A stretch of 64,000 bases of DNA from Vulcanimicrobiota bacterium (GCA_050250895.1 JBFWNU010000003.1:491302-555301); one strand, 5' to 3'; numbered from the stretch's first letter, positions 1 through 53,621 are shown. Program-made: numbers and translations. The notes: generated from the sequence alone by a model not told the origin.

Positions 1-83
1 TCTGGCAGCTGAGCCGAAAAGAACGACCAGCGATAGGCCGTGTCGCTCGGCCGAACCGCGGAGCTGCGTGGGATCGAGGGTCT

Positions 84-1763
84 TCACGCCCCGCTCAGGT
101 CGACCGACTCGGCGGTGGTGCCGCCAGCGGCATAGGCGTCCATGGCTTGATCGAGGCGTTTGACCTGCCACATCTTCTGGCTGCCGTTGTAATAGAGCTG
201 TTTGCCGCGCGACATCAGGGCGGGATTGTTCTCGGTGGCGGCCATCCGCATGTGGTCGATGCCCTCGCGGCATTCTTCCAGACCGGCCCGCAACAGGTCG
301 AGGGCGTCCTCGGCAATGGCCGCGAAGTCTTCGGCGGCGGCCAGATCGTCGGGAGGACCTTCGTCGGGCACTTCGGGGGGCATCATCGGGTCGAGCTTGG
401 CCTGGGCCTTCTCGATGTCGGCCTCGCGCCGGTCGAGCTTGGCCAGAAAGTCGTCCTTGGCGATCTGTCCGTTCTCGAAGGCGTCACAGTCAGCAAAGAT
501 CGCCTGCATGACATCGGTCATGACCGTCTCTTGCGAGGCGCCCGGCCCAGGCTGGCCACCTTCCATCGCCGTCACCCCGGCCTCGAGTTGAGGCAGCCGT
601 CGCTGGCAACCCGAGCAGACCTTGGTGCCAGGCGGATTCTCGGTTTGGCAGTGGACGCACAAGATCTTGCCGGCCCGCTCGTTGAAGCTCTGGACGTTGA
701 GGTAGGCGCTGCCCAGTTTCTGGCCGCAGGCCTCGAGCAGAGCCAGGGTGTCGGCCACGACTTCGGGGTCCATGGCGGGATTGTCGGCATACTCGATGAG
801 AGCCAGCAAAGCGTCTTCGAGCCCCTCCATGGCTTCTTGCATCCGAGCCGATTCCTCGGTGAGAACGCCGGGGTCGAGGTCCGCCTCGAGAGCCGGTTCG
901 AGATCTTCAAGGCCTTTGCGGGTGCGCTCGAGGTGCTCTTCGGCCATCGACTTGAGCACGAACCCTTCGGTCTTGCCGTCGCGATAATCCTTGGCCACCT
1001 TGAGCAACCAGTTGATGGCCGGAGCCTCGGTGGGACCTTCGGTGAACACGTGGCGATGATAGGTCTCGAAGGAGGCCTCGAGATCGAGGTGAGCGGCACT
1101 GAGCGCGTCGATCAGCGTCGAGAAGCGATCGTTGGGCGTTTTGGCGTCGAGCTTCTTGAGGTCTTGAATCAGCTCGACGATGCGCTTGAAGGCGGTCTGG
1201 CGCTCGGCTACCCCGGGTTTGGTCCTGGCCTCGCTGTTCTCGACTTCTTCGAGGGCCTTCTGATAGAAGTCGATGTAAGCCTGGCAATGGTCATGCCACA
1301 ACTGCAGGGGAGCCTGACCCATTCTCAGCCCGGCGGCCAGGTTGTGGAACAGGTTGATCAGAGGGAACTTGCTGGGCCCGGTCGAGAGATACTTCTCTTC
1401 GTAGCGGGCCTGCGAGATCCGCAAGCGGTGCGAGGCCTCGGCGATGGCCTCGGCGCCTCGGTAAAAGGCGGCGGTGTCTTCTCCTTCGAGGGCGGCCACG
1501 ATCTGGTCGAGGGCTTCCTCATAGGCTTTGAATTGAACGCCGATTTCGTCGAGTTCGGCCTGATAGGTGTTGTAGAACTCTTCGCCCTGGGCCTCGACCT
1601 CGCCGAAGAAGGTGTCGTGGGCCGTGTTCATGGCGACGTGGCGCTGCCCCACGACGGTGGCCAGTTGCTCAATGGCGCTCTCGTCACCATCGGAGATGGC
1701 CAGACAGAGATCGATGATTTCTTGAGTTTCGGGAGAACTCGAAATCGGCTTAGTCTGGGACAC
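84..1763 (-). CDS. Acidic helical protein with internal zinc-ribbon (CxxC-x10-CxxC)
   Basis: 559-aa ORF with CVHCQTENPPGTKVCSGC motif; start overlaps the GNAT 3' end; paralogous motif at 61366-61938. Confidence 0.8.
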   Translation of the reverse strand: MSQTKPISSSPETQEIIDLCLAISDGDESAIEQLATVVGQRHVAMNTAHDTFFGEVEAQGEEFYNTYQAELDEIGVQFKAYEEALDQIVAALEGEDTAAFYRGAEAIAEASHRLRISQARYEEKYLSTGPSKFPLINLFHNLAAGLRMGQAPLQLWHDHCQAYIDFYQKALEEVENSEARTKPGVAERQTAFKRIVELIQDLKKLDAKTPNDRFSTLIDALSAAHLDLEASFETYHRHVFTEGPTEAPAINWLLKVAKDYRDGKTEGFVLKSMAEEHLERTRKGLEDLEPALEADLDPGVLTEESARMQEAMEGLEDALLALIEYADNPAMDPEVVADTLALLEACGQKLGSAYLNVQSFNERAGKILCVHCQTENPPGTKVCSGCQRRLPQLEAGVTAMEGGQPGPGASQETVMTDVMQAIFADCDAFENGQIAKDDFLAKLDRREADIEKAQAKLDPMMPPEVPDEGPPDDLAAAEDFAAIAEDALDLLRAGLEECREGIDHMRMAATENNPALMSRGKQLYYNGSQKMWQVKRLDQAMDAYAAGGTTAESVDLSGA

Positions 1764-2334
1764 GGGATGCTTTCCTCCTATGGTGTTGTCTCATCACTCG
1801 GGCAGTGGCGTGCCCCCTTTGCTCGGGCGGTCGACCGGGCATCGTCGTGGGCCCCTCGGGGCCGCAGGCCATCGTGATGTGATAGCGTTCGACTTCAAAT
1901 CCCTGGTGCAGGGCGGCCATCAACGCCCTATCGTTGCTGGCGGTGATGCGTCCAGTCATGTAACGGCAACCGCGTTGATGGGTGATGCGGGCCGCCTCCT
2001 TGACCAGGAGGCGGTCCACCAGCTTGCCCAGGTGGCTGGGAGCCACGGCCATATTGTAGATATGGGTCTGGCGCTCGCCGGTGGTCTCTTCGACGTGGCG
2101 CAACTCGAGAATCAAAAACCCGATCGGCTCCTTCTCGTCGACGGCCACCAACATGGCCACTTCGCGCCGGTTGTGAAGCATCTCGTCGAGATCGCCCAGG
2201 TGTTGTTCGGCGGCCTGGCGGACCACTTCGTTGGGTATGTCGCGGCCTTCCGGGATGCCCTGGTCGAGGGTGTCCAGGGTTAGCTGCCGGATGAAGGGCA
2301 GGTCACTCGCTCTGGCTCGTCTTACTTCCATCAC
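1750..2334 (-). CDS. GNAT family N-acyltransferase
   Basis: N-terminal VRRARASDL, HIYNMAVAPSHLGKLV motif A, ITASNDRA...GF motif B. Confidence 0.85.
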   Translation of the reverse strand: MMEVRRARASDLPFIRQLTLDTLDQGIPEGRDIPNEVVRQAAEQHLGDLDEMLHNRREVAMLVAVDEKEPIGFLILELRHVEETTGERQTHIYNMAVAPSHLGKLVDRLLVKEAARITHQRGCRYMTGRITASNDRALMAALHQGFEVERYHITMACGPEGPTTMPGRPPEQRGHATARVMRQHHRRKASRVPD

Positions 2335-3667
2335 GTTTGCGGTTGGTAGCCTTGAGTTTCAACACTTCGGCCTGAAGCTTCAAAGCCCTCGGTGCGGGCA
2401 CCTGTAATATGCGGGCACACTGAGCGCGGGCTTGCGAGACCTGGCCCAGAGCCAGATACAGCTGAGCCAGCTCGAGCTGAGCCAACTGGGTGTCGAGCAG
2501 GTCGGGGGCCAGGGTCACGGCTCGACGATAGCTGCGGGCAGCCCGCGAGCCCTCTCCGGCTTCCACCTGGCTGCGGGCGAGTTGCAGCCAGAGACTGGCG
2601 TCATTGCCGTCGAGGCGAATCGCTTCGATGAAGGTCTTGACCGCCGCCGTCGCCTGACCGCTAACGCGCTGGGCCAGACCGACCATCTCCAGCAGGTGGC
2701 GCCGGGTCAGTCTATCGGACTCGGTGGCTAGCAAAGCCCGCCAGTTGTCGATGGCTTTGGCATAGTCTTGGAGCCGGAAGGCCAGGTAGCCGTCGAGGTA
2801 GACAGCGGCGGTTCTGTCTTCGCTCTCGAGTCGCTCGAGCCACGAGGGACAACCCTCGAAACGTCCTCGATCCAGCCGACCGCAGACCTGGTCGATGGCC
2901 CGCTCCACCCAGCCCGGGTCGAGTTCAGCCGCTCGCTCGGCCTCGCCCCGGCGCCAGAAACCGGCGGCTCTCAGCCAGCCGGGCAGGTCTTCGTCGACTT
3001 CTCCCAGACGTGCGCTCAGAGCCTCGGCGCTTTTGCGGTCGGTGAAGGTGACCAGGGTCAGATCGCCCAGATGGCGCTGGTCGAGGGGAGTGTAGCCACC
3101 CTGAACCGAGTAGGCTACCGTCAAAGCTTGCCATTTCAAGTGGCCAAGCTGGTCGTGAAGCTGCATCGGATCTTGCCACAGGCCGTCATCGGGAGCCAGA
3201 AAGTAATCGATATCGATATCGAGCACCACTGGCCCCACCAGGTCGGGAAGGTTGTCGCTGGTGCAGACGACCAACCGCTTGCCAAGCAAATGGCCCTCGA
3301 CGCGCCCTTGCACCATGTGCAACGACAGATAGTCGCTCACGGTCGGGCGCAGCCAGTTCTGCAGCTCGTTGCCGGCCCATTCAAGCCAGTCTTGCTGGCC
3401 CACCAGATGGGGCGGGATGACCCACACCAACTCGCTCACCAGGCCCTCTTCCATGGCCGGTAGCAGAAAGTTGCCGCAGTTGACCTCGGGCTGGCGCAAC
3501 CCCGTGTAGCCAGGCACCTTGAATCCACAGGTGTCGAGGTGGGCGTCCACATGCACGCAGACGGCTTCGCGAACGCCCAGTTCCTTCCAGAAGAAGTAGG
3601 CCTCGCGATGGTCCTCCATAAGCAAAAAGGGAGCCGGAGCTCCCTTGTCGTGGTTGTGGTTGGTCAA
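2303..3667 (-). CDS. UPF0489 (PF12640) peptide-arginase-like protein with C-terminal TPRs
   Basis: EDH, HVDAHLD, NCGNFL, LDIDIDYF and S..GGYTP motifs of the arginase/deacetylase-fold family; TPR-like helices in the C-terminal third. Confidence 0.8.
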   Translation of the reverse strand: MTNHNHDKGAPAPFLLMEDHREAYFFWKELGVREAVCVHVDAHLDTCGFKVPGYTGLRQPEVNCGNFLLPAMEEGLVSELVWVIPPHLVGQQDWLEWAGNELQNWLRPTVSDYLSLHMVQGRVEGHLLGKRLVVCTSDNLPDLVGPVVLDIDIDYFLAPDDGLWQDPMQLHDQLGHLKWQALTVAYSVQGGYTPLDQRHLGDLTLVTFTDRKSAEALSARLGEVDEDLPGWLRAAGFWRRGEAERAAELDPGWVERAIDQVCGRLDRGRFEGCPSWLERLESEDRTAAVYLDGYLAFRLQDYAKAIDNWRALLATESDRLTRRHLLEMVGLAQRVSGQATAAVKTFIEAIRLDGNDASLWLQLARSQVEAGEGSRAARSYRRAVTLAPDLLDTQLAQLELAQLYLALGQVSQARAQCARILQVPAPRALKLQAEVLKLKATNRKRDGSKTSQSE

Positions 3668-3670
3668 ATT

Positions 3671-4294
3671 CTAGCAGAAGCGAGAGTGGCAGGGGCAGCA
3701 GCAGCCGTAGCGTTGCGGAGGGTAGAAGCCGGGCTGGCCGACGCCGTAGGTGCCGGGCATTCCATAGCCGCCAGGCAGGCCGAAGGGGTCGCCGCCCCAC
3801 TGTTGGCCGCCGGGCCAGCCGCCCTGGTTCCAGCCGCCGTAGTTGCCACCGGGGCCGTAGGCGATGGAGCCGTTGTTGGGGCCGAAGTCACCAGCGTTCT
3901 GCTGAGCCGCTTGCTCGGGGCCGAGGCCGAACAGGTTGCTGACGCCGTTTTCCATGGCACCGAAGATGCCTGCGCCAGCGTTGCCGATGGCCGGTCCGAA
4001 GATACCGCCAGCAATGGCGCCGAGGGGGTTGCCGCCGGTGAGCAAGAAGCCGGCTGCAGCTCCGCCGAGGACGCCGACGATGGGATCGCCGAGCACGTCT
4101 TTTACGGCGCCAAGTCCGCCTTTGAGGACCTCGCCAGCGCCCTGCAGGACGCCCTTACCGATGGTGCCGAGTCCCTGTAGAGGGTGACCAGAGAGGATCT
4201 GGCCCGCGCCTTTGACGACGCCGCCGAGAACTCTTCCTGCTCCGCGGACGACTCCGCCGATTGCTCTTCCTATGCCGCGAACAACTCCGCCCAT
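3671..4294 (-). CDS. Glycine-rich protein with Cys-rich C-terminus (putative precursor/substrate)
   Basis: AGGAGG RBS upstream; 11-aa GGVVRG repeats, glycine zipper, tail QRYGCCCPCHSRFC. Confidence 0.8.
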   Translation of the reverse strand: MGGVVRGIGRAIGGVVRGAGRVLGGVVKGAGQILSGHPLQGLGTIGKGVLQGAGEVLKGGLGAVKDVLGDPIVGVLGGAAAGFLLTGGNPLGAIAGGIFGPAIGNAGAGIFGAMENGVSNLFGLGPEQAAQQNAGDFGPNNGSIAYGPGGNYGGWNQGGWPGGQQWGGDPFGLPGGYGMPGTYGVGQPGFYPPQRYGCCCPCHSRFC

Positions 4295-4584
4295 TTTCCT
4301 AGTCCTCCTGTCCCCTCCGAAAGGGTTCTAATGTTCTTGTTGAGGTTGTTATACCGCGCTCGACCGTGAAGACAAGAGCGTTCATATTCATTTAACAAAG
4401 TTTTTTTTCTAGGGGGTTGATTCCTTTCAGGCGCGCAAACTCGCGGCCGTTGCCCGGGTGGTAGTCAACTCGGTGGTATCCCGGCTTGGCCAGGCCTTTT
4501 ACATGGTTACAAGTCGTTCACCCCCTGGTTGCCCGGCTCGGAGTAGGCTAATCGCGGTCGCCTCTCATCTCCCCTGGAGATACT

Positions 4585-5523: not shown

Positions 5524-5682
5524 CTTCGCGCCGCGCCGCTGGGCCGACTCAGCGAGCGTCGGCCCGGTCGCGGCTTGACGGGAGCAACGAGAACGAGCGT
5601 TCAGGAAGCCTGACTCGAGAGGCCGGCGGCGTTCTCGTCGCTCCCTGCCGGCGCTTCGCGCCGCGCCGCTGGGCCGACTCAG
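5523..5682. repeat. 30-bp direct repeat pair enclosing hairpins (REP/BIME-like) between convergent genes
   Basis: GCTTCGCGCCGCGCCGCTGGGCCGACTCAG at 5523-5552 and 5653-5682; inverted repeat 5580-5595/5630-5645. Confidence 0.75.
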
Positions 5683-8600
5683 TCCTGGATGGCGAGGCCG
5701 AAGTCGCCTACCGAGACCCAGTCTTCTTGCTGTTCCAGTTCGACTTTCTCGGGCTTGACCTGAGGGTTCTTCTTGAGCCACTGCTCGTAGTCAGCCCGCA
5801 GGCGGTGGACCTCGGCGATGGGGTCTTCCGCCCCGAGCCGGGCGGTGGGTAGGAAGAGGGCGTCTCTGCCGGCATGGGCCAGTCGGCTCAGCACCTCTCG
5901 GGCCAGGTCGGAGTCGCGATGATGCTTGAGGGCGGCGTCGCCGATGAGTAGCTCGAAGGGCATCAGTGCGGCCAGAGGGTCGCCGCAGGCGCTGGCGGCT
6001 GCTTGAAGCGGCCAGGGGCCGGCGTGCTTGGCCCGCGTCGTTTGCAACCAGTCGGCTAGCTGGACGCAGGACTGGGAGTCGAGGGTTCGCAGTTCGGCCT
6101 CGACCGCTTCGTAGACCGGCTCGTGCAGGCTCTGGTCGAGATAAGACAGGGCACCCAGCCCGGCCTGAAGCAAGAGGCTGGCGGGCGGTATCTCTTGCTT
6201 GAACCGAGTAAGCTGACCGGAGATGCCCATCACGGCTGCGGCCAGCCTGTCGTCGGGCAGCTGACTGGCGGCCAGCCGGTGGAGGAGCCCTCCCAGGGGG
6301 CCGGGCAGGCCTGCCGCGGTGGCTTTGGTGACCGGTCGGGGTTGGAGCTGCACCAGGTTCGAGGCGGCTCGCAGCAGGTGGGGGCTCGGGGCGGGCTGGC
6401 TCGGCTCGTTATAGGCGGCCAGGGCGCTCTGCAGGTTGGCCGCCGGCAGGGGTGACGTGTCGAACAACTCGAGCAGGTGGACCAGCGGCTCTTCCTGGCC
6501 CGGGGCCAGGCTGGCCAGGCCCGACCGGAGTGCGCTGGCCGGAGCCAAGGTCAGCATTTGCTGGCACAGTTTCAACCCGACCGGTAGCCGGCCTTGCTCG
6601 GGCTCGGGCCTGACCCAGCGCATGGCCGAGAAGGCGGCCCGAAGTTCGGTCGTGTTCGAGGGGTCGAGAGCCCGCAAGAAGCGCACCACCTGGGCCGCGT
6701 CCGGGTCGGCCGGGTCTTGAGCCGGCAGGAAACGCTCTAACATCGCTTGAGCCTGTTCGGGGCTGAAAGCGTCTTGACTGGCCGCCGAACAAAGGGCCAG
6801 CGAGGCCGGCAGGCCGGCAAACTTCTGACGGACCTCCCAGAAGGCGAGGGCCTGGGTGACGCGCTGCGCGGCGGTGGTCTCGTCGAGCTGAAGCTGGAAC
6901 TCGAGGAAGTCGGCCAGGGCCAGGCTGTCGGGGCCGTCGCTGTGGCTGCGCAGGCTGGCGACAGCCCCCTCGATGGCGGCGTTCTTGTTGGGCCCCGGCG
7001 TATAACCCAGGCTCTCGCGTAGCAGCGCGGCCGCGGCCGGCAAAGGGTCGTTGGCCGCCAATGTGTAGACGGCGCGTTGAAATGCCGCCGTGCGATAATC
7101 GCCGTCGGCGGCCGGCAAGGCCGAGAGGTGTCGAAGGAATTCGACCCCCTGGGCAAGCCTGGGTGAGAGGCCCTGGTCGCTCACCCGCGCCGTGACTTTG
7201 CCGACCCACTCCGCCGGAGCCACCTGGCCGTTTCGGGTCACACCGTCCCGGGCCAACAACAGAACCGGGGGCAAAGGACTCTTCTGTTCTAGTTGCTGTT
7301 GATAGCCGGTCAGGCAAAGAGGCAAGAATTCGCTGGGGTTAGCTCCCAGTTCGGCCCAGTCTGCAATGAGGCCCAGCAGGCCCGCACTTTCTGGCCGGTC
7401 GGCCTGGGCCAGGGGAAGCGCCAGTTCGAGCACCCTGGTCTGGTTTTCGGGGGTGAGATAGCCGATTAAACGGCTGGCCGCCATTACCACCGACGAGAGA
7501 CCGTCGGGGGGAGGGGCGGCCAGGCTTTCGATGGCCGTTCGTAGACCATATTGCAGGTTGGGCTCGCTTTCGAGTCCGTCCAACTGGGCCACGGCTCCCA
7601 GAAAACGGGCCACGGGGTGGCTGTCAGGCGCTATCGGAACGGCCTGGACGTGCTTTAACGCCAGCTCGGGTGGGGCTCCGTAGACGGCGCCGTGGCAGGC
7701 CCACAGCGCCGGGGGTAGGCCGGACGGCTGCAGCTTGAGTTGGTTCCAGGAGCCAACCATGTTGGACAGCACCGAACCCAATCTCTGGGGCTCTTCGAAA
7801 TCCGTGACCTGGCTCAGATAGGCTCCCAGGGCCGCGTCCTCTGGCGAGACCGGATGAGTCCTCATCAAGGCGGCCAGCTCTCGCGCAAAGTCCCGCTGGG
7901 CGGCGGGTGGGATGTAATTCAGGCAACCGGTCGAGGCGGCCAGGGCTGGTCCCACGGTGGCGCCGTCGAGCCGAGCCAGGCCATAGTAGAGGGCGTTAAA
8001 GGCCGTATCGGGGGTCTGGCAAACCTCGACGATCTGGCCGAGCAAAGCCATCAATTGGCTTTGGGACGGATTGTCGTCGGTAGGTAGGGAGTCGATAGCT
8101 TGCTTGAGCTTGGCTCGCTCGAGCTGACCCAGGGTGGCTTTGAATACGGATGTCGCCACCGACGTGCCAGCCAATCTGCCTCGCGACGAAAAGCCGCTGA
8201 GGGCCCCACGCAGCAGGGTCTCGTGCTGACCGGGCATCGCAAACTCTAGCAGGCCGCGCAGGCTGAGCAAGAACTGCTCGATCTCGCCTTTGGGTTGTCG
8301 AGCCAGGGCGTGTTCCAGGGCCAACTGGACTACCTGGGCCTGGTCCTCGATCGGCAACTGCCTGGCCAGGCCAGCAGCCAGATGGAGCACGGCCGGCAGG
8401 CTCTGGTCGGTGGCGTAGGCCTGCTGCAGTTGAGTCAAGCCATAGTAGGCCGCCCGCCCCAAGCTGTCTCGGGCCGGCTGGGATAGAGCCAGGTTTCCCA
8501 CGGCCTTGAGGAAGTCCGCCGACGGATCGCCCTGCGAGCCCTCGACCGCTAGCGCCAGCATCTCCCCCGCGCGCTCTGGTGGTAAGGCACAAAGCGAACC

Positions 8601-10721
8601 GCGGGCCATCCGCAGGGTGGGCGGCAGGCTGGCCGAGGCCGGATCCGCGTAGCCCTCGATCGAGGGACGAATCAGGCTCTCGCAGTTGGGAAGGTCCTTG
8701 AGGTGTTCGAGATAGCCAACCGCCGCCAGGGTGTCCGCCTCGTTCGTGTCCTGGCGAATCGTGGCGAGCACCCGTCCGGCCAGCTCGCTCCGTTGCTCTT
8801 GGGCGCAACTCTGCAGTGCTGTCTTGAGAATCTTGAAACCGGGGTGCACAGCATCGGGGGCGACCAGCGCGTTGAGCATCGAGCCAAATAGATAGCCTGA
8901 GTCAAAGTCCTGTTCGGCCACGGCTTCCAGGACACGATAGGCATAAGTCTGTTCTTTGGGTCGAGATTGGGCCTGACCCGCGACCAGGGTCTTGACCAGT
9001 TCGCGCTGGTTGCCGGCCGGCACCTGGCTTAGACCATTCCGCAAAAGAGTAAGCTCGAGGCCGAGGGGACCGGCTTTTTGGGGAAGGAGTTCGCGGGTAG
9101 CCCTGACGAGACCGGCCGGGCTGGCCAGCGGGGCGGCCAGTTTGTAAAATCGCACTGCTTCGGCGGGAAGGTGCGGGGTCAGCGCCTCGACCAGGGAGCT
9201 CAGTCCTTTGGCTGCCTCGTCTTGCGACAACCCGGCCACCGCGGCATTGAGGATCTCGCCCGGCGTCATCTGGTAGCCGTAGCGAAGGTTGCTGCCGAGG
9301 CTCGCCACGGCCCGCCCTGCGTCGGGCAAGCCGGCCAGGACCCTCAGCGCTTCGAGGAACGGTTCCTTAGTCGGGTGCTCGGCAAGCACAGGAGCCAGCA
9401 GAGCCTGGTAGTCGTTGGGAGAGCCGCCCACCGCGCCCAGCGCCATCAGGACGGAATCGGCCAGGCTGATTTTGTGCGCTGGCTTCGAGGCTAGCATGGT
9501 AAAGGCCGCGAGCACGGCGTCGGACGTCTTAAGGTGAGGCAGATAGGCGAAGCGCGGGTCCGAGGGTTGCGAGGCCCCCATCAATTGGATGGCCCGTTCT
9601 TGAAGGGGCGCCGGGATGGCCGGCAAGGTCTTGATCAAGCTGCTCAGCAAGTCGCCGCCCTGCCAGCCCTCGGCCATGGGCTGCATGCATCGGGCCAGTT
9701 GGGCGGGCTCGAGGTTTAAAGGCTCGAGGCTCGCCAACAGCCGACTGCGAGGGTCGCTACCCAGGCTTTTGAGGAAAGGTCGAGGGTCAGGGGTCAGGCT
9801 GGCCGCGCGAGCGTAGCCGGTCACATCCTGGATGGTCTCGAGTTCCTTGAGGCAGGCGAGTGGCTGCTTGACGTCAAGCTCGACCAGATGTTCTACATAG
9901 GCGCCTTGCCAGGAGTTGAGTCGGGTCCGGTCGGCCTGGAGCAGGGCCAGCAGACCGGGGCCGAAGGCGTGCCCGGCGGGAAGTCCACACACCAGGCTAG
10001 TCAGAGTGGCGTCGACGGGGGCCCCCGCTTTCTCGAGCAGGCGCGCGGCCGAGACCATTCGGTCGTAGTCGAGCTGCTCAGCCAGACCAGCCTTTACCAG
10101 GCTGGCCACCGGACGCTGGTCTTGCTTGAGTTCTTCCAGGGTTAACTCGGCTCCCGAGCGGATCAGGGGGTCTTTGAGTTGGGTGGGGGCCGCCAGGGCC
10201 ATGGCCGCGGCCAGCGTGGCCGTGGCGGCCGGTCCGCTCAGGCCGGGGGCAGCCGCTCCTAACACGGTCTTGGCCGTCTCGAGATTGCCATAGGGCAGGC
10301 TGGCCGCCTGGCGCACCACCTGGTGGGGCGAGGCTTCGGCGCTGTTCAAGAGGCGCTCGGCTTCCAGCAACCGCTCGCGCAAGACCTTGGGGTCGCGGCC
10401 GGCCGGGTCGCCGGGAAAGACTTTGAGCGAGCGGGGTTCGCCTTTCGGGTTGAAGGCCAGGTTCTGCTTGCCGTCGCTGGCCCAAACGGTGTCCTCTTTG
10501 AGAAAGAACCAGCCGCGCCAGCCGGAGGCCCGTCCCCGACCCTGACGATAGCGTTCGTGCTCGTCGGCCCCGAGCACCACCAGGTCCTGGCCGTCCTGGA
10601 CCAGGGCGTGTTCGGGGTTGCCCTCCTCGGCGATGGCGAAGGGAAGACAATTCAACCGCTCCGGGTTGCGGGTCACCTGACCTTGCAGAGAGCGATGGCG
10701 TTCAAAGGACAGATCGGCCAC
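5679..10721 (-). CDS. Very large Ala/Leu-rich alpha-helical hypothetical protein (1680 aa)
   Basis: Long uninterrupted ORF with degenerate helical repeats; no catalytic motif recognised. Confidence 0.8.
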   Translation of the reverse strand: MADLSFERHRSLQGQVTRNPERLNCLPFAIAEEGNPEHALVQDGQDLVVLGADEHERYRQGRGRASGWRGWFFLKEDTVWASDGKQNLAFNPKGEPRSLKVFPGDPAGRDPKVLRERLLEAERLLNSAEASPHQVVRQAASLPYGNLETAKTVLGAAAPGLSGPAATATLAAAMALAAPTQLKDPLIRSGAELTLEELKQDQRPVASLVKAGLAEQLDYDRMVSAARLLEKAGAPVDATLTSLVCGLPAGHAFGPGLLALLQADRTRLNSWQGAYVEHLVELDVKQPLACLKELETIQDVTGYARAASLTPDPRPFLKSLGSDPRSRLLASLEPLNLEPAQLARCMQPMAEGWQGGDLLSSLIKTLPAIPAPLQERAIQLMGASQPSDPRFAYLPHLKTSDAVLAAFTMLASKPAHKISLADSVLMALGAVGGSPNDYQALLAPVLAEHPTKEPFLEALRVLAGLPDAGRAVASLGSNLRYGYQMTPGEILNAAVAGLSQDEAAKGLSSLVEALTPHLPAEAVRFYKLAAPLASPAGLVRATRELLPQKAGPLGLELTLLRNGLSQVPAGNQRELVKTLVAGQAQSRPKEQTYAYRVLEAVAEQDFDSGYLFGSMLNALVAPDAVHPGFKILKTALQSCAQEQRSELAGRVLATIRQDTNEADTLAAVGYLEHLKDLPNCESLIRPSIEGYADPASASLPPTLRMARGSLCALPPERAGEMLALAVEGSQGDPSADFLKAVGNLALSQPARDSLGRAAYYGLTQLQQAYATDQSLPAVLHLAAGLARQLPIEDQAQVVQLALEHALARQPKGEIEQFLLSLRGLLEFAMPGQHETLLRGALSGFSSRGRLAGTSVATSVFKATLGQLERAKLKQAIDSLPTDDNPSQSQLMALLGQIVEVCQTPDTAFNALYYGLARLDGATVGPALAASTGCLNYIPPAAQRDFARELAALMRTHPVSPEDAALGAYLSQVTDFEEPQRLGSVLSNMVGSWNQLKLQPSGLPPALWACHGAVYGAPPELALKHVQAVPIAPDSHPVARFLGAVAQLDGLESEPNLQYGLRTAIESLAAPPPDGLSSVVMAASRLIGYLTPENQTRVLELALPLAQADRPESAGLLGLIADWAELGANPSEFLPLCLTGYQQQLEQKSPLPPVLLLARDGVTRNGQVAPAEWVGKVTARVSDQGLSPRLAQGVEFLRHLSALPAADGDYRTAAFQRAVYTLAANDPLPAAAALLRESLGYTPGPNKNAAIEGAVASLRSHSDGPDSLALADFLEFQLQLDETTAAQRVTQALAFWEVRQKFAGLPASLALCSAASQDAFSPEQAQAMLERFLPAQDPADPDAAQVVRFLRALDPSNTTELRAAFSAMRWVRPEPEQGRLPVGLKLCQQMLTLAPASALRSGLASLAPGQEEPLVHLLELFDTSPLPAANLQSALAAYNEPSQPAPSPHLLRAASNLVQLQPRPVTKATAAGLPGPLGGLLHRLAASQLPDDRLAAAVMGISGQLTRFKQEIPPASLLLQAGLGALSYLDQSLHEPVYEAVEAELRTLDSQSCVQLADWLQTTRAKHAGPWPLQAAASACGDPLAALMPFELLIGDAALKHHRDSDLAREVLSRLAHAGRDALFLPTARLGAEDPIAEVHRLRADYEQWLKKNPQVKPEKVELEQQEDWVSVGDFGLAIQD

Positions 10722-10768: not shown

Positions 10769-12106
10769 TCAGGCCGCCGCAGGACCGGCCAGGATGGCCG
10801 GGTCGGTGTGGGATTGTCGCATCAGCTCGGTAATCCAGTAGAGACGCTCGTCGAGGTCGTGCCACTTGGGCACGTCGGTGCCGCTCAGATCGTCGGGGTT
10901 GGATTGCTTGGAGCCGTCGTCCTGAATGCGGATCAGGTTGTCCCTGAGTTCCTGGTTGCCGATTTCATCGAATTCGTCCACCAGGTTACCCAGGGTCATC
11001 GGCTGGGGAATGTCGTCGCCAGCTTTGAGTTCCTGGCCGTCGAGTTCGAACGCCACCTGCGAGTTGGCGAGATCTTGAACCGGGTCGCCAGGCACGACGG
11101 TGTCGACGGCCGAGGATAGGAATCCGGTCAGGCCACCCTGTTTGTGGGGATCAAACGCCCTGTCGATTTCGTCGTCGAGGCGGATCTGCTCGTGCTCGGC
11201 CACATAGATGTTGCCGTTGAGCGTGAGTTCTTGCTTCTTGCGCACGTCGGTCTCGAACTTGGCGTCGTAGTAATTGCGGAAGGCGTCTTCCAGGGGACTG
11301 TGGTCTTGATTCTCCGGATCCGAGCGCCGAAAATCTTGCTCGTCGACCCAGCGTTGGAAAGCCTCGGGGTCCTTTGCCTCGGCATCGCCGAAAGTGTCGA
11401 TGAAACTCTGGAAGTGGGGGGCGATCTCCGAGAAGACTTCCTGATTTCCGTCGGCCAGGGCTTCGCGCGACTGGCCCGGAGTGTCGACATTGATAGGCCC
11501 GGGCAGGTCAACGTCTTCTTCACCCCGGATGCCACCACCGACGGCGTTGGAGGCGTGAGCGGCGTAGCTCAGCCAGTTGTTGCCGGCACCAGGGCCGAGC
11601 ACCTCGTCGAATTCCTGACCCAGGCGGGTGTATTCTTCGGTGATCTGGCGGTTGCGGCTGCCGGTATCGAGGTCCTCCTCCTGACGAGCGATGTCCTCGA
11701 TGCGTTCGGCGTCTTCACTCTGGGGCTCGGGCCCGCGGTGGCCCCAGCTGAAAATATTCTTGATTTTGTCGAGGAAGCCCTGAGCCGCTTCCGAGGCCTC
11801 GTTGGTGCGCTCGCCGGTGGCAGAACTGGTTTCGACGCGGTCGACGGGAGCGCTGCTTTCGGCTCGGGCCGTCTCGGCCTGGCGCTCGGCGGCGTCGGCC
11901 GAGATCGGACCCCGACCCGCCGGGGTGGTTTCGGCGCGATGCTCGGCGGCGTCGGCGCTGGTGGGCGAGCGGTCGGAGCGGGCCGGATGGCTGGCCCGGT
12001 GAGGCCCCCTGGACTCGGGATGCCGCGCCGGTCTCGGCGTTCGGGTGCGCTGGTTTCCGCGGTAGGGAGGGGTGGTGCTGCTGCGGTCCGTTCTCGTGAT
12101 GCTCAT
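10769..12106 (-). CDS. Hypothetical protein (disordered N-terminus, acidic globular C-terminal domain)
   Basis: 445-aa ORF; N-terminal SADAAE repeats; NW..YA..AS..VG and GNQEVFSEI segments look like a conserved domain. Confidence 0.7.
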   Translation of the reverse strand: MSITRTDRSSTTPPYRGNQRTRTPRPARHPESRGPHRASHPARSDRSPTSADAAEHRAETTPAGRGPISADAAERQAETARAESSAPVDRVETSSATGERTNEASEAAQGFLDKIKNIFSWGHRGPEPQSEDAERIEDIARQEEDLDTGSRNRQITEEYTRLGQEFDEVLGPGAGNNWLSYAAHASNAVGGGIRGEEDVDLPGPINVDTPGQSREALADGNQEVFSEIAPHFQSFIDTFGDAEAKDPEAFQRWVDEQDFRRSDPENQDHSPLEDAFRNYYDAKFETDVRKKQELTLNGNIYVAEHEQIRLDDEIDRAFDPHKQGGLTGFLSSAVDTVVPGDPVQDLANSQVAFELDGQELKAGDDIPQPMTLGNLVDEFDEIGNQELRDNLIRIQDDGSKQSNPDDLSGTDVPKWHDLDERLYWITELMRQSHTDPAILAGPAAA

Positions 12107-45401: not shown

Positions 45402-45799
45402 GCAAGGGCTTCACCCTGGTCGAGGTGCTGATCGTGGCGGCCGTCGGGGCCGTCGCGCTCTTGACCTTGATTGGAGTGTTTTTGCTCGGCTATCGCTGGT
45501 CCACCGAAAGCCAGAGTCGACTGCTGGCCGCCCAGTTGGCCCGCAATGGCCTGGAGGCAGTCCGAGCCACCCCTTTCGAAGACTTGCCCGACACGGCTCG
45601 CACCTTCGACGGCAGCCGGTCCGATCCGGCCGACGGTCCCTTTCCCCCGGCTCCCTACCCGAGTCTCAGCCTCGACGGCCAGGAATTTACCTTCGTCTAT
45701 GTCATCGAGCCACTTTCGGACAGAGCCCGTGACGTGCGCGTCGAGGTGCGTCCGCGCGGCAAACAACCCGTTGTGTTGAGAACCTATGTCCGGCCCTGA
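45386..45799 (+). CDS. Prepilin-type N-terminal cleavage protein (PilV-like)
   Basis: KG|FTLVEVL. Confidence 0.85.
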   Translation: MDHPVGKGFTLVEVLIVAAVGAVALLTLIGVFLLGYRWSTESQSRLLAAQLARNGLEAVRATPFEDLPDTARTFDGSRSDPADGPFPPAPYPSLSLDGQEFTFVYVIEPLSDRARDVRVEVRPRGKQPVVLRTYVRP

Positions 45800-46379
45800 G
45801 CGACGCTTCGGCTTCAGCCTGCTGGAGGTGCTCGTGAGCGTGGCCATCCTCAGTCTCGTCTTCACCGCTTTGCTGGCTGTCTACGCCTTTGGGATCCGCC
45901 TTTTCACGCGAACCGACCAGCGCAGCGAACTCATTCGTAACGCTCAATTGGCCGTCACCACCCTCCAGCACGACCTGATGGATAGCAGCTTCGCCAGCCT
46001 CGAGATCGACGGTTCGACGCTGGCCTTTCTCGCTCCCAGTCCGGCCTCGCTCGATTCTTCAGGCCGAGCCACCTGGAAGAGCTACCTCATCTATTCGCTG
46101 GAGGAGAGAACCCTGCGACGCCGGGTGGTGGAGATTCCGGCCGGCGCTCCGCAGGTGGAGAGCCCGGGACCGATCTCGGGCTTTGATCCCGGCAGCGGAC
46201 CTCAAGAGCTATCTGCTTACCTCACCAGCGTTCCCCAAAGTCGGGTGATGGCCCGCGAACTCGACCAATTCATCGTCTATCCCGACGAGCAATCGCAATC
46301 GGTCAAGGTCGAGCTTCTTTTCAGCCGGCAAGGCAGCCAGCTGACTATCCCTGTCTCGGTCCGTCTTCACAATGACTAG
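45786..46379 (+). CDS. Prepilin-type protein (PilW/GspJ-like)
   Basis: FG|FSLLEVL. Confidence 0.85.
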   Translation: MSGPERRFGFSLLEVLVSVAILSLVFTALLAVYAFGIRLFTRTDQRSELIRNAQLAVTTLQHDLMDSSFASLEIDGSTLAFLAPSPASLDSSGRATWKSYLIYSLEERTLRRRVVEIPAGAPQVESPGPISGFDPGSGPQELSAYLTSVPQSRVMARELDQFIVYPDEQSQSVKVELLFSRQGSQLTIPVSVRLHND

Positions 46380-47424
46380 GCCCTCGTTTCCAGGCGATCA
46401 GCTGACGGTGGTCTTGCGGATGCTGAGTACCCTGCTGACCTCGGGGGTGCCGGTGCATCGGGCTCTGGAACTCGTGGTCGAAGGCTGCTCGACGGGCCCG
46501 GTTCGCGACACCCTGGCCTCCGTTTCTGCCTCGGTCTCGCAAGGCCAACGGTTGAGCATGGCCCTGGCTCAAGCGCCTCAAGCCTTTCCCCCGCTCCTGG
46601 AAAGCCTGGTCCGCGCTGGAGAGGATTCAGGTCAATTGGACGCCTTACTGGCGCGCTATGTGGTCTTTCACGAAAGTTCGGCGCGAACGGCCCGCCAGCT
46701 ACGCGCAGCTCTGACTTACCCGGCCATCGTGCTGGTTCTGACCGTGGTGGTGGTGGCCATCATGGCCGTGGTCGTCTTTCCCCGCCAACGCGAGCTGTAT
46801 CAGTCCCTGGGCGTCACTGAGGTCTCGGTGCTGACGCGCCTGCTGGAGGGTCTGCTCGGATTGGCCGCCTGGCTTCCCTGGTTGGCGGTGGCATCGCCTT
46901 TGCTGGTGTTGGCCAATTCGACCCTGGACGCCTCGACCCGCCAGAAGCTCCGCGAAGCGTTCGACGGAGCTCTCCTGCGCCTGCCCTTGCTGGGCTCGGT
47001 GATCCACAAGGCCGCCACCGTTCGTCTGCTGATAGGGTTGGCCATCTTCTTCGAAGCCGGAATTACTCTCGGTCCCGCCTTTCGGCCGCTGGGCAAGATG
47101 CTCGGGAACGCGATCCTGGAGAACCGTTTTGCTCAGTTCCTCGAGAGCATCGCTAAAGGCGGTTGCAGCCTGTCGCTGGCAGCCTCGCAGTCGGAGGCCT
47201 TCTTGCCGGTGGTGGTAGCCCTCTTTCGGGTCGGAGAAGAGCAAGGTTCCCTGAGCCACCTCTGCCGCCAGACAGCCGACATCGTAGAACTCGAGGTCGA
47301 ATCCAGCTTCAGGACCCTGGAGACCCTCCTCGAGCCGCTGGCGATGGCGGTGATGGGGCTGGTCGTGGGTTTCGTGGTGCTGGCCTCCTCGCTGCCCATG
47401 TTGGGAGTCCTGCAGCAACTCTAG
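46372..47424 (+). CDS. GspF/PilC family inner-membrane platform protein
   Basis: L.SGVP...AL, AGE.SGQL, ALTYP, GEE.G.L, LLEP. Confidence 0.9.
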   Translation: MTRPSFPGDQLTVVLRMLSTLLTSGVPVHRALELVVEGCSTGPVRDTLASVSASVSQGQRLSMALAQAPQAFPPLLESLVRAGEDSGQLDALLARYVVFHESSARTARQLRAALTYPAIVLVLTVVVVAIMAVVVFPRQRELYQSLGVTEVSVLTRLLEGLLGLAAWLPWLAVASPLLVLANSTLDASTRQKLREAFDGALLRLPLLGSVIHKAATVRLLIGLAIFFEAGITLGPAFRPLGKMLGNAILENRFAQFLESIAKGGCSLSLAASQSEAFLPVVVALFRVGEEQGSLSHLCRQTADIVELEVESSFRTLETLLEPLAMAVMGLVVGFVVLASSLPMLGVLQQL

Positions 47425-47484
47425 CGCCGGGGGCAGCCAGCCGGCTAGCAGGCACCGGGGCCTCCTTGTCGTAAGGGCTAGCCC

Positions 47485-47964
47485 ATGAGTATCGGGCTTG
47501 CCTTCAAGGCCTTTTTTAAAGTGCTCGGCGACAAGGAAGTGGCCGAGAAAGTCTCGGCCATTCTGGGCGAGGCTCCTAAAGAGTTGGCGGCGCCGCCGGT
47601 CGATTCGGCCGGCCAGTTGCTTTCGACTCTCCAGCGCGAGGGTCGGTTTATCGACTTTCTGCAAGAGGACCTGACCGGGTTCCAGGACGCCCAGATCGGA
47701 GCCGTGGCTCGTGATGTCCACGGCGGTTGTCGCAAGGCGCTCGATCAGTATCTGACCATCAAACCGGTGATGGCCGAATCCGAAGGGGATAGCGTGACCG
47801 TGTCCGAGGGTTTTGACCCCAACACCATTCGCCTGGTGGGCAAAGTCGAAGGGGACCCGCCCTTTGACGGCACCCTGCGTCACCACGGTTGGAAGCTCGT
47901 CGCTTCCAAGCTGCCCCCGATGGCCAACGCCGAAATTTTGCTGCCCGCGGAGGTAGAATTATGA
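47485..47964 (+). CDS. DUF2760 domain protein
   Basis: LQREGRFIDFLQED, D.QIGA.AR.VH.GC, G.PPF.G.L.HHGW, PAEVEL. Confidence 0.85.
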   Translation: MSIGLAFKAFFKVLGDKEVAEKVSAILGEAPKELAAPPVDSAGQLLSTLQREGRFIDFLQEDLTGFQDAQIGAVARDVHGGCRKALDQYLTIKPVMAESEGDSVTVSEGFDPNTIRLVGKVEGDPPFDGTLRHHGWKLVASKLPPMANAEILLPAEVEL

Positions 47965-49703
47965 CCTGGGTTATCGGAATTGATTTAGGCACGACCAACA
48001 CCACGCTGGCTTATGCCGAGCCAGCCGAAGAAGAGGGCGAAGAGTATACGCAAGAGGTCTTCGAGATCCCGCAGTTGGTCGCTCCCAACACGGTGGAGGG
48101 GCGCACCAGTCTGCCCTCGTTTCTATATTTGCCAAGCGAACACGAGGTAGGGGCGGGAAGTTTGTCGCTGCCCTGGGACGAGGTGGCCCTGCATGCCGTG
48201 GGCACCTATGCTCGCGACGAGGGCGTGAAGGTGCCCGACCATCTCATCTCGTCGGCCAAGTCGTGGCTCAGTCAGGAGGGGGTCGACCGCAAGGGGAAGA
48301 TCCTGCCCTGGAAGGCTCCCGAGGACGTCGAACAGCAGTCGCCGGTAGAGGCCTCGACCAACTATCTGCGGCACCTGGCCGACTCCTGGAAGTGGAAGCA
48401 CAAGGACGCTCCCCTGCCCGATCAAGAGGTGGTTCTGACGGTGCCGGCCTCGTTTGACGCGGTGGCCCGCGAGTTGACCGCCGAGGCGGCACGGGCGGCC
48501 GGGTTGGCCAACATCACCTTGCTCGAAGAGCCTCAGGCCGCCTTTTATGCCTGGCTTGACAAGGCTGGTGAAGACTGGCGCTCGCAGGTGGGCAAAGGCG
48601 ATCTGGTGCTGGTCTGCGACATCGGCGGCGGGACCACCGACCTGAGCTTGATTAAAGTGTATGAAGAAGAGGGTGACCTGGCCCTCGAGCGCGTGGCCGT
48701 GGGCGAACACATCCTGCTGGGCGGCGACAACATGGACCTGACCCTGGCCGTTTCGGTGCGGGCTCGCCTGAAGAAAGAGGGCACCAAGCTCGATTCGTGG
48801 CAGTTCCAGGTGCTCACCCACGGTTGCCGGGCGGCCAAGGAGGCCCTGCTCGGTGGCAGTGACGAGGATACCTTTCAGGTCACCATCCCCGGTCGCGGCA
48901 GTAAGCTCATCGGCGGGGCTCTGCAGGTCGACATCGAGCGCGACGAGGTCGAGAAGCTGCTGATGGAGGGATTTTTCCCTGAGGTCGAGGCCGACGAACG
49001 ACCGGCTCAAAAGACCCGCGTCGGTCTCACCGAGTTGGGTTTGCCTTACGAGGCCGACCCGGCCATTACCCGTCACCTGGCCGGCTTTCTCAAGGAAGAG
49101 TACGAGCCCACCGCCATCTTGTTCAACGGCGGCGTGTTCAAGGCCACCCAGCTGCGCGACCGGCTGGTGGACGTGGTCAACAGCTGGGTGGAAGAGCCGG
49201 TCAAAGTGCTGGAAGGCACCGACCTCGATCTGGCCGTAGCTCGCGGAGCGGTGCGCTATGGATTGGTCAAGAAGGGCCACGGCATCCGCATTCGCGGCGG
49301 CCTGTCGCGGTCGTACTACATCGGCGTCGAGGTGGCTATGCCGGCCGTGCCGGGGATGGAGCCGCCCATCAAAGCCGTGTGTGTGGCTCCCAAGGGCATG
49401 GAGGAGGGCTCGGAGCTCGACGTGCCCGACCAGGAGTTTGGATTGGTGCTGGGCGAGGATGTCGAGTTCCCTTTCCTGGCTTCCAGCGAGGCCGACGAGG
49501 TGGGCACCGTCCACGAGGACTGGGAAGACGAGGAGATCGAGGAGTTGGCCAAAGTGGGCGCAACCCTCAAGGGCGATGGGGGAGTGGTGCCGGTGCGGTT
49601 GCAGACGGTGGCCACCGAGATCGGCACCCTCGAGCTGTACTGCGTCGAGCGCGACGGCGAGGGGCGCTGGAAGCTCGAATTCGAGGTTCGGGAGTCAGAG
49701 TAG
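47961..49703 (+). CDS. Atypical Hsp70-family protein
   Basis: GIDLGTTN, TVPASFD, EEPQAA, DIGGGTTD, LLGGDNMD. Confidence 0.9.
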   Translation: MTWVIGIDLGTTNTTLAYAEPAEEEGEEYTQEVFEIPQLVAPNTVEGRTSLPSFLYLPSEHEVGAGSLSLPWDEVALHAVGTYARDEGVKVPDHLISSAKSWLSQEGVDRKGKILPWKAPEDVEQQSPVEASTNYLRHLADSWKWKHKDAPLPDQEVVLTVPASFDAVARELTAEAARAAGLANITLLEEPQAAFYAWLDKAGEDWRSQVGKGDLVLVCDIGGGTTDLSLIKVYEEEGDLALERVAVGEHILLGGDNMDLTLAVSVRARLKKEGTKLDSWQFQVLTHGCRAAKEALLGGSDEDTFQVTIPGRGSKLIGGALQVDIERDEVEKLLMEGFFPEVEADERPAQKTRVGLTELGLPYEADPAITRHLAGFLKEEYEPTAILFNGGVFKATQLRDRLVDVVNSWVEEPVKVLEGTDLDLAVARGAVRYGLVKKGHGIRIRGGLSRSYYIGVEVAMPAVPGMEPPIKAVCVAPKGMEEGSELDVPDQEFGLVLGEDVEFPFLASSEADEVGTVHEDWEDEEIEELAKVGATLKGDGGVVPVRLQTVATEIGTLELYCVERDGEGRWKLEFEVRESE

Positions 49704-52352: not shown

Positions 52353-52355
52353 CGG

Positions 52356-52377
52356 TGGACGGCCGAGCCGTCCACCA
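52356..52377. terminator. GC hairpin between convergent genes
   Basis: GTGGACGGC-CGA-GCCGTCCAC. Confidence 0.45.
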
Positions 52378-52383
52378 GGGGGT

Positions 52384-52671
52384 TTAGTGCGCCACGAGTT
52401 GGCGACCGAGTTTCTCGAAGGCCTCGATGGCTGCCTGTTCGAGCTGCTGCTTCATGGTCGGGTCGAAGATGTCGGCATACTTGAAGTAGCCTCGATCGTC
52501 GTCGAGCTTGCGACCCGGCATCCCTAGAAAGTAGCCGTTGTCGTTCTTGTACAGCTTGGCCCGAATACGAAACGGCCCGTAGCCAATGGAAACCGCGGCC
52601 ACTCCGCTTCCTTCACCGTCCTTCGAGAAGGGGGTGATTTTCAGGATCTGCGGTTCTACTTTGTCGTTCAT
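52384..52671 (-). CDS. SpoVG-like nucleic-acid-binding protein
   Basis: GYFLGMPGRK...Y...A motif, C-terminal helix AIEAF, 95 aa. Confidence 0.7.
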   Translation of the reverse strand: MNDKVEPQILKITPFSKDGEGSGVAAVSIGYGPFRIRAKLYKNDNGYFLGMPGRKLDDDRGYFKYADIFDPTMKQQLEQAAIEAFEKLGRQLVAH

Positions 52672-52818
52672 GATACGCTCCAGTTGTATGTTGTGGCGAG
52701 ACTTGTCTTGTCTCGCTAGCAGTCTAGCAGCGTCTTTCGGACCGTCAGTTTGCCGTCGGATGACAGGCTGATTGCAACGGTATGAACTTTGTATGAACAG
52801 CGAACGGCCGTGTGTTCG

Positions 52819-53310: not shown

Positions 53311-53615
53311 GACGACTCCTTTCGTTTGAGCGCGTCTTCCAACGCATCAAGTCGCGGGACCCAAAAGGCCCGCATCTGGTCGACCCAGGCGACCAGTTCC
53401 AGCATGCCCATCGGTTCGAGTTCGTAGATGCGCCGCTGGGCCTCGGGCCTGACTTTTACCAGTCCGGCTTGCCTGAGGGTCTTGAGGTGTTGAGAGATGG
53501 CGGGGGCGCTGACCTCGAACTGCTCGGCCAATTCGCCAGAGCTACGCGGTCCTCGGGCTAAAATCTCGACCAGCCGTCGCCGGGTGGGATCGGCCAACGC
53601 TCTCATTGCCTCCAT
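53307..53615 (-). CDS. ArsR/SmtB family regulator
   Basis: ALADPTRR, PAISQHLKTLR.AGLV; ATGA coupling with SRPBCC gene. Confidence 0.9.
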   Translation of the reverse strand: MEAMRALADPTRRRLVEILARGPRSSGELAEQFEVSAPAISQHLKTLRQAGLVKVRPEAQRRIYELEPMGMLELVAWVDQMRAFWVPRLDALEDALKRKESS

Positions 53616-53621
53616 TGTGGA

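Follow-up and report, generated by a model that had tools for sequence, protein, structure and literature searches.

An OspR-like ureohydrolase domain, a GNAT and a Gly-rich repeat protein encoded in one Vulcanimicrobiota operon

What would a relative of the peptide arginases do in an operon whose most conspicuous other product is a Gly-rich protein of 207 residues? The question is raised by four genes at one end of a 64,000-nucleotide stretch of DNA from a Vulcanimicrobiota bacterium (GCA_050250895.1, JBFWNU010000003.1:491302-555301), which we call the window and in whose coordinates positions are given. The genes encode, in order, the Gly-rich protein, a UPF0489 protein with TPRs (454 aa), a GNAT (194 aa) and a Zn-ribbon protein (559 aa; Table 1). 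An earlier examination of the DNA without database searches (the sequence-only reading) proposed a new pathway akin to those of peptides made on the ribosome and modified after translation (RiPPs), in which arginines of the Gly-rich protein would become ornithine and then be acylated. Our results are best explained if what this operon produces and modifies is a structural protein of membrane type, not a small peptide for export. The parts of this explanation differ in strength, and we take them up in turn, starting with the enzyme.

The UPF0489-TPR enzyme and the systems it resembles

Judged by its sequence, the N-terminal domain of the 454-aa protein is a true relative of the peptide arginase OspR, with the metal site intact. 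The motifs DAHLD and DIDIDYF, already noticed in the sequence-only reading, are present, and PF12640, the family named there, matches the isolated domain at 29.1 bits against a gathering cut-off of 27; the whole protein falls just under the cut-off (26.0 bits). Across the family, 24 of 28 N-domains match PF12640 at E <= 1e-3. Searched against the Protein Data Bank (PDB), the domain finds OspR of the landornamide pathway (8brp), with E 9.3e-6 when the single sequence is used and E 1.4e-13 with a profile of 28 sequences. This peptide arginase is the sole relevant PDB match of the profile, which lists no conventional arginase or agmatinase up to E 1.

The alignment places the catalytic residues one by one. 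The metal ligands of OspR are H12, D39, H41, D43, D165 and D167 (PMC10028609; here and below, what we say of published systems refers to the accessible portions of the papers cited). They align with H20, D41, H43, D45, D152 and D154 of the 454-aa protein, and S264 of OspR aligns with S187. The six Mn ligands and S187 are invariant in 35 full-length and 28 N-domain sequences. The proposed enzyme assignment is supported: an OspR-type ureohydrolase domain, backed by the PF12640 score, the 8brp match and the ligands, with TPRs in the same protein and a GNAT encoded next to it. The two proteins differ in architecture: OspR is a 309-residue stand-alone homodimer with a dimerization domain, whereas here a domain of about 205 residues, of low identity to OspR, is followed by TPRs. 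An AlphaFold2 model of the full-length protein has a predicted local distance difference test score (pLDDT) of 93.0 and a predicted template-modelling score (pTM) of 0.90. We propose that the TPR domain recognizes the substrate, and we consider that the 454-aa protein is probably an active peptidyl-arginine ureohydrolase.

The wider family has a similar setting. When 1.84 billion representatives were searched with a profile, the N-domain had 1327 relatives, 646 of them at E <= 1e-10, and TPRs are present in 26 of 35 sampled relatives (picked by hand: 5 short ones, and 30 taken at intervals down the list). In others the fusion partner is PqqD, radical SAM plus PqqD, or a lasso B2-type transglutaminase core. 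These partners are RiPP parts, and the fusions place the subfamily in peptide-modifying contexts. Individual examples are P0183, P0207 and P0171, in which UPF0489-like domains are joined to TPR plus PqqD, radical SAM plus PqqD and a transglutaminase core; a member with radical SAM plus PqqD bears the name ‘PqqD family peptide modification chaperone’ (Elusimicrobiota), and one with the transglutaminase core is called ‘lasso peptide biosynthesis B2 protein’.

Neither the fusion of an arginase to TPRs nor the succession of arginase and GNAT is new. BipC, annotated as a TPR protein, has been assigned to UPF0489; it carries the motifs EEHxE, DxHxD and DIDLD, and it shows activity in vitro (PMC12707348). 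PbsE, described as an arginase with TPRs, turns the Arg in an FHAFRF motif into ornithine (PMC12257519). The 454-aa protein shares the UPF0489 arginase plus TPR architecture with both, as compared by description only, and its metal-binding motifs, E-D-H-x-E, DxHxD and DIDID, agree with the three of BipC. However, BipC and PbsE act on one Arg in the FRF motif of a short precursor in biphenomycin-type pathways, and their clusters carry MNIO, B12-radical SAM, hydroxylase and TldD-type protease genes that this operon lacks. We found no MNIO, B12-radical SAM or FHAFRF-type precursor among the 46/47 candidate open reading frames (ORFs) scanned in the window or in the 15 kb downstream beyond its first base.

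The succession of the two enzymes is known from the selidamides, in which an arginase acts first and a GNAT then fatty-acylates the ornithine, while clusters that lack the arginase acylate Lys (PMC8784127). The kamptornamide (KspA/R/N/M) and phaeornamide (PhaA/R/N/I/M) clusters share with our operon the combination of a PF12640 arginase and a GNAT, and in them the Arg that becomes ornithine and is acylated lies close to the N-terminal end of the region that is modified (PMC8784127). What the sequence-only reading stated about OspR and the selidamides agrees with these sources (PMC10028609, PMC8784127). It had also remarked that the NHLP/Nif11 leaders and lanthionine synthetases of those pathways are not visible here, and Pfam and NCBIfam scans of the window give the same result: neither family of leader was found on the Gly-rich protein, and the ORFs scanned include no LanM, radical SAM, YcaO, protease or exporter gene. 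Unlike the selidamide clusters, then, this operon has no NHLP/Nif11 leader, LanM, protease or exporter; it has instead a 207-aa repeat protein with several candidate arginines, a TPR-fused arginase and a Zn-ribbon protein.

The novelty lies in the substrate context, with the enzyme pair encoded beside a Gly-rich membrane-type protein of 207 residues; if that protein is the substrate, chemistry known from small peptide antibiotics would reach an entire protein. The accessible literature on UPF0489/TPR arginases does not describe this four-gene module, a statement that does not extend to supplementary files, which may list such clusters; the word ‘arginase’ is absent from PMC9259500, and papers retrieved on aminopropyltransferases and RiPPs were unrelated.

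Arginine and lysine in the Gly-rich protein

The operon is conserved as a unit, and its arrangement is not a matter of chance. Full-length matches to the enzyme at E <= 1e-72 were found in 12 of 40 related genomes, and the small-genome family f3 gave TPR-level matches alone. Around the best UPF0489 matches, the order UPF0489-GNAT-Zn-ribbon is kept in nine of nine loci and the Gly-rich gene stands in front in eight of them, in agreement with the expectation that the genes would be syntenic in relatives. The complete order is kept in four genera of two families, without the flanking genes, and no fewer than 13 distinct Vulcanimicrobiota loci show the gene order of the operon. Scans with a GNAT profile recovered 22 loci in species-representative genomes and 14 in metagenomes; those with a meaningful label all come from this phylum, and a few records are labelled otherwise. 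In the public records, the relatives appear as Vulcanimicrobiota, Eremiobacterota or Xenobia. Of 401 genomes of the phylum, 18 gave a member of the Gly-rich family, and these belong to families f1, f2 and f5 only.

A comparative indication of a link between enzyme and Gly-rich protein comes from 17 distinct Gly-rich proteins, 13 encoded beside a UPF0489 gene and 4 without one. The 13 start MGGV[VI]R and have two to five Arg within the first 30 residues, for a total of 42 Arg and 7 Lys, and R6 is present in every one of them. Over the same stretch the other 4 have no Arg and 14 Lys, with a Lys at position 6. Gly-rich, GNAT and Zn-ribbon genes without the arginase gene occur together in three genomes of one genus, where the Gly-rich proteins start MS[GS]AFK. 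The fourth, a paralog at C1:2798342 of the genome to which the window belongs, begins with MGGVVKGVK and is followed only by a gene like that of the 559-aa Zn-ribbon protein. In three Gly-rich proteins of the paralogous clusters that we call type B, in which UPF0489 and GNAT genes are both present, 4-5 of the first 30 residues are Arg.

This pattern is as expected if the arginase makes ornithine from Arg and the GNAT needs the amine of ornithine or Lys, and it mirrors the Arg/Lys logic of the selidamides. Clusters retain the GNAT gene whether or not they contain the arginase gene, which again is as expected if the GNAT acts on ornithine or Lys amines. There is a parallel in the PbsE-type clusters, where the arginase gene is missing if the precursor lacks the Arg in question (PMC12257519). 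The pattern also bears on which arginines are the likely targets. The sequence-only reading had named both the N-terminal GGVVRG repeats and the C-terminal tail RYGCCC...SRFC. The repeats are favored, as it is there that Arg gives way to Lys where the arginase gene is missing; the tail is not. We rejected a C-terminal Arg as a conserved target, since it is absent in 2 of 12 aligned proteins adjoining a UPF0489 gene and shifts its position in others.

The sequence of the Gly-rich protein suggests what such a modification might act upon. Gly makes up 63 of its 207 residues, and no Pfam or NCBIfam family matches it or seven of its homologs, in the case of Pfam even at E <= 10. Its first 66 residues form six 11-residue repeats whose lag-11 identity is 0.39, as compared to 0.153 +/- 0.039 after shuffling, and whose hydrophobic moment at 98.2 degrees is 1.27, as compared to 0.34 +/- 0.18; neither value was reached in 2000 shuffles. 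The periodicity of 11, with side peaks at 4, 7, 15 and 18, fits an amphipathic 11/3 helix that has R6, R10, R17 and R21 on a Gly-rich polar face. On this helix one stripe is made up of R6, R17 and K28, the adjacent stripe consists of R10, R21 and Q32, and the rest of the polar face is Gly. The hydrophobic core that follows reaches a Kyte-Doolittle maximum (19-residue window) of 1.76 at residue 67, contains the conserved alignment block GDPIVG...NGVxNLFG and could possibly form a membrane hairpin. A low-complexity tail of Gly, Pro, Gln and Tyr, variable in length, leads to the C-terminal Cys cluster.

Lipid-surface proteins with helices built of 11-residue repeats include alpha-synuclein, the apolipoproteins and the perilipins. 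The Gly-rich protein shares with such helices the period of 11 and the sharp moment at 98 degrees; it differs in having no sequence relationship to them and a polar face that is nearly pure Gly with a few Arg or Lys. The likeness thus concerns a possible mode of action and not family membership. Among its look-alikes from the Atlas database, the best score (0.81) lies within the range of chance. Conserved blocks run along the full length of the protein. Its appearance is that of a protein of membranes or lipid surfaces, tailored where it sits, and not that of the precursor of a small exported peptide. The repeat also occurs in another setting: a 586-aa protein with a GDPD phosphodiesterase domain (L095, 5926-7683, minus strand) ends in Lys-type Gly-rich repeats of 11 residues, from which the repeat may be a portable anchoring module.

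A proposed mechanism and its alternatives

We propose that the TPR domain would hold the Gly-rich protein while the OspR-like binuclear-metal domain hydrolyses the guanidino groups of the repeat arginines (R6, and also R10, R17 and R21) to give ornithine and urea. The GNAT could then acylate the freed delta-amino groups with an acetyl or a longer acyl group, which would remove the only charges on this face of the helix and may add lipid anchors. The helical Zn-ribbon protein might be a standing partner of Gly-rich proteins, as a chaperone, a scaffold or a co-structure. That the Gly-rich protein is the substrate of the 454-aa enzyme seems to us a finely balanced proposition. Its conversion from Arg to ornithine followed by N-acylation, the mechanism in full, falls slightly short of that balance, and the assignment of the arginase-made ornithine to the GNAT is more tentative still.

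The label ‘RiPP-like’ of the sequence-only reading is doubtful for such a system, because the substrate is a 207-aa membrane-type protein, no protease or exporter lies nearby, and the Gly-rich protein belongs to a wider Gly-rich/Zn-ribbon family (see below). The usual RiPP layout is not what we find: conservation extends over all 207 residues, and there is no peptidase or ABC exporter gene in the operon or its flanks.

Several observations weigh against the mechanism. The three arginase-less operons form one clade (100/100 support) that is nested among the others, so the switch from Arg to Lys rests on one loss event and one paralog. The Cys cluster also differs between the groups, with a PP-x-[YC]G-CC..F motif in proteins beside a UPF0489 gene and, in the clade that lacks this gene, LA or AA where the others have CC, so lineage effects are at work. 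An Arg-type paralog (R6, R10, R17) with a Cys-rich C-terminus stands alone in three genomes of genus g4 (L091 5911-6624, L092 5935-6627, L094 5977-6693), with no UPF0489, GNAT or Zn-ribbon gene within about 6 kb, and action in trans would need to be assumed for it. Conversely, operon L015 has the arginase gene, and no Gly-rich ORF was seen there.

Further cautions on the same side concern the two enzymes. The acidic residue before the first His of OspR, Glu11, is proposed to hold the guanidine, and the residue aligned with it is Asp19, which is conserved in at least 90% of sequences in the 35-sequence alignment; Glu18 lies one place earlier. NF052474, the NCBIfam model of the FlmR/OhkR peptide arginases, matches at 26.7 bits (E 3.6e-6) against a cut-off of 350; the 454-aa enzyme is a distant relative of that family and not a member. 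Two structure searches with the whole model returned TPR proteins alone and gave no confirmation of an arginase-type fold for the N-domain, the assignment of which derives from the sequence evidence described above. The GNAT matches PF00583 (35 bits against a gathering score of 20.7), and its nearest solved relatives, all of them weak matches, are small-molecule amine acetyltransferases such as PaiA and nourseothricin acetyltransferase.

These cautions give room to other explanations. The mildest departure is that the arginase acts on the Gly-rich protein and the GNAT elsewhere, on the N-terminal amine, on Lys or on another protein. The initial Met is probably removed, because the Gly-rich proteins start MGG or MSG, and the GNAT has weak NCBIfam matches to RimI (E 1.2e-4) and to aminoglycoside acetyltransferases; moreover, Lys is also found in the repeats of Arg-type proteins, and the GNAT stays in the arginase-less operons. 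We nevertheless regard a separate target as unlikely, since selidamides link exactly these two enzyme families in sequence, the two genes overlap by 32 nt, and the UPF0489-GNAT pair persists in clusters of types A, B, C and D, the paralogous ones included. A larger departure would be a role in small-molecule polyamine or guanidino metabolism, with an agmatinase-like UPF0489 protein, a polyamine acetyltransferase and unrelated Gly-rich and Zn-ribbon genes. A ureohydrolase, an aminopropyltransferase-like enzyme and an amine acetyltransferase represent three enzyme families of polyamine synthesis. The best of the weak matches of the GNAT to solved structures is the polyamine acetyltransferase PaiA (E 0.0018), and a BpsA_C-like gene (PF01861, the branched-chain polyamine synthase family) is the fifth conserved gene in type B, C and D clusters (L048 4249-5394, L020 6048-7574 and, in the window's own genome, C1:2050913-2052145 of the paralogous cluster C1:2050913-2055737). 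However, this gene is absent from all type A loci, the enzyme is fused to TPRs in a tight and conserved operon with the Gly-rich gene, and free polyamines give no reason for the Arg/Lys switch. The characterized UPF0489 enzymes in the accessible text of the papers cited all act on peptidyl Arg, and we think a purely metabolic role very unlikely.

Arginases share a fold with metal-dependent deacetylases (the HDAC fold), and Lys is present in the repeats, so one may also picture a reversible pair, with the GNAT adding acyl groups to Lys in the Gly-rich protein and the arginase-fold enzyme removing them. The binuclear ligand set of H, D, H, D, D and D is that of a ureohydrolase and aligns residue by residue with OspR, and a lost deacylase would leave the change from Arg to Lys unexplained; of the explanations weighed here, this one we find hardest to credit. 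Finally, the product might be a glycine-zipper membrane toxin or a bacteriocin-like protein, with the Zn-ribbon protein as immunity or holding factor and the enzymes as a means of tuning it, which would be compatible with our best explanation. The hydrophobic core is Gly-zipper-like, and Gly-zipper families are among the Atlas structure look-alikes, at template-modelling (TM) scores of only 0.27-0.29. The genome also holds many paralogous pairs of Gly/Cys-rich and Zn-ribbon proteins, a pattern known from toxin-immunity pairs as well. On the other hand, no signal peptide, exporter or secretion gene was found near the operon, none of the four proteins has a match in PADLOC, the Gly-rich protein has none in Pfam, and the proposed partner is large, soluble and helical, unlike the small membrane proteins that typically confer immunity. 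A toxin therefore strikes us as distinctly unlikely.

Returning to the tailoring of a membrane-type protein, the BpsA_C-like gene of the paralogous clusters feeds a bolder version of it as well as the free-polyamine explanation. This version would be a RiPP-type tailoring, from Arg on the Gly face of a long amphipathic 11/3 helix to acylated ornithine, of an entire structural protein that is not exported, yielding a new kind of bacterial membrane-coat protein, edited in lipid or charge and with a non-proteinogenic residue in it; in the paralogous clusters, the BpsA-like homolog would extend ornithine into polyamine-like chains. A polyamine pathway acting on a protein would resemble silaffin or hypusine chemistry. 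We offer this extension as a long shot.

Peptide arginases are few and have so far been tied to small exported natural products. If our explanation is true, ribosomal ornithine and its acylation would also serve in building cell structures, and a TPR-guided arginase that accepts several arginines in Gly-rich repeats would be of use to enzyme engineers. The natural Arg/Lys switch makes a clear prediction. The operon would also open a first way to the function of Gly-rich/Zn-ribbon pairs, a large family specific to an uncultured, large-genome branch of the Vulcanimicrobiota.

The Zn-ribbon protein, the locus and its neighbors

The 559-aa protein belongs to a helical Zn-ribbon family that is specific to the phylum and expanded, with 29 ORFs at E <= 1e-3 in this genome. 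Its model (pLDDT 80.8, pTM 0.42) consists of 17 helices and a central ribbon whose four Cys are invariant in 14 sequences. The fold gave no clear match, the best hits being the rods of alpha-catenin, vinculin and talin (E 6.6e-3, TM 0.18-0.25); a sequence search found nothing in the PDB, and the Atlas gave only unnamed Vulcanimicrobiota clusters.

In our reading, a small Gly- or Gly/Cys-rich ORF on the same strand lies directly beside 6 of the 15 best family ORFs (E <= 1e-10), with two further rows of the 15 taken for noise. Examples in this genome are C1:2798342-2800258, C2:947100-949853, C3:146959-148514 and C5:445880-447426. The window itself holds a second pair, both genes on the minus strand, of a 155-aa Gly-rich protein (60803-61270) and a 190-aa protein (61366-61938) that matches the profile of the 559-aa family at E 8.1e-12 and has a weak DZR match; there is no arginase or GNAT gene beside this pair. 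Because Gly-rich ORFs recur beside ORFs of the family, the Gly-rich/Zn-ribbon pair is the recurring core, to which arginase and GNAT are tailoring additions in a subset. The pair looks like a phylum-specific two-gene cassette, and we propose that the 559-aa protein may be a partner or scaffold of the Gly-rich protein.

Table 1. Positions in the window of the four genes and of features within and beside them
Feature	Position	Strand	Evidence or remark
Gly-rich protein gene	3671-4294	-	ORF, 207 aa; proposed substrate
Six 11-residue repeats xGGVV[RK]GxG[RQ]x, residues 1-66	4097-4294	-	Lag-11 identity, hydrophobic moment
Hydrophobic Gly-zipper-like core with GxxxG runs, residues 67-115	3950-4096	-	Kyte-Doolittle; conserved block
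C-terminal Cys cluster YGCCCPCHSRFC	3674-3712	-	Alignment
UPF0489+TPR protein gene	2303-3667	-	ORF, 454 aa; proposed protein arginase
Catalytic N-domain, residues 12-214	3026-3634	-	Profile match to 8brp; aligned to OspR
TPR domain, residues ~230-446	2330-2980	-	TPR Pfam families, helical repeats in model, fold matches Z 19.3-14.5
GNAT gene	1750-2334	-	ORF, 194 aa; basic C-terminal tail
Zn-ribbon protein gene	84-1763	-	ORF, 559 aa, all-helical
Zn ribbon CxxC-x10-CxxC (C369, C372, C383, C386)	606-659	-	Weak PF12773 (DZR) match; Cys invariant, 14 sequences
Intergenic region, presumed promoter region	4295-4584	.	Between operon and divergent PD40 propeller gene; position only
Terminator-like hairpin, weak lead	3627-3646	-	Just within UPF0489 gene, past stop codon of Gly-rich gene

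The window is part of a 9.5-Mb genome in 17 contigs. As the sequence-only reading had it, the four genes lie on the same strand with a 3-nt gap or overlaps, which the ORF coordinates confirm: the gap (3668-3670) separates the Gly-rich and UPF0489 genes, and the GNAT and Zn-ribbon genes overlap by 14 nt. The GC content at third codon positions is 0.76-0.80 in all four frames, which is the bias of this genome's genes. A signal scan of the operon region found no sigma-70-like promoter and three terminator-like sites, not above the 3.9 +/- 1.6 expected by shuffling.

In two metatranscriptome runs of one study, contigs of a relative about 95% identical cover 3656-4310 or 3656-4332, and also 1586-1990. 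The former contain the entire Gly-rich gene and end at 3656, near the hairpin at 3646-3627. This could hint at a separate abundant transcript of the Gly-rich gene, with the caveat that contigs cannot show transcription and that DNA may be present in such libraries. Of the words sampled from the sequence, eight other sequencing runs contained only 5-9%.

The operon is flanked upstream by the divergent PD40 propeller gene and downstream by a HepT/MNT-type pair. Neither flank recurs in the orthologous loci, and we therefore take the four genes as the unit. The PD40 propeller gene and the gene of a 1680-aa protein (5679-10721, minus strand) were considered as members of the system and rejected, as neither is present in orthologous loci; nor was the gene of a 445-aa protein (10769-12106, minus strand) found in them. 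The 1680-aa and 445-aa proteins adjoin the operon and have no Pfam family. The HepT-like ribonuclease gene (PF01934, 61 bits) and a short ORF in front of it lie directly downstream of the operon (window 1-273 and L023 14306-14824, both minus strand). The short ORF ends in ...LVVLFGSAAR, has no Pfam match at E <= 0.001 and, from its motif, looks like the MNT-type antitoxin partner. A rhomboid gene is found 17 kb from the operon. Farther along the window are pilin-like (N_methyl) and T2SS-F genes (45786-59752) and two neighboring Hsp70-like genes (47889-52352, plus strand), the second of which has a DUF3731 ‘DnaK-related’ domain.

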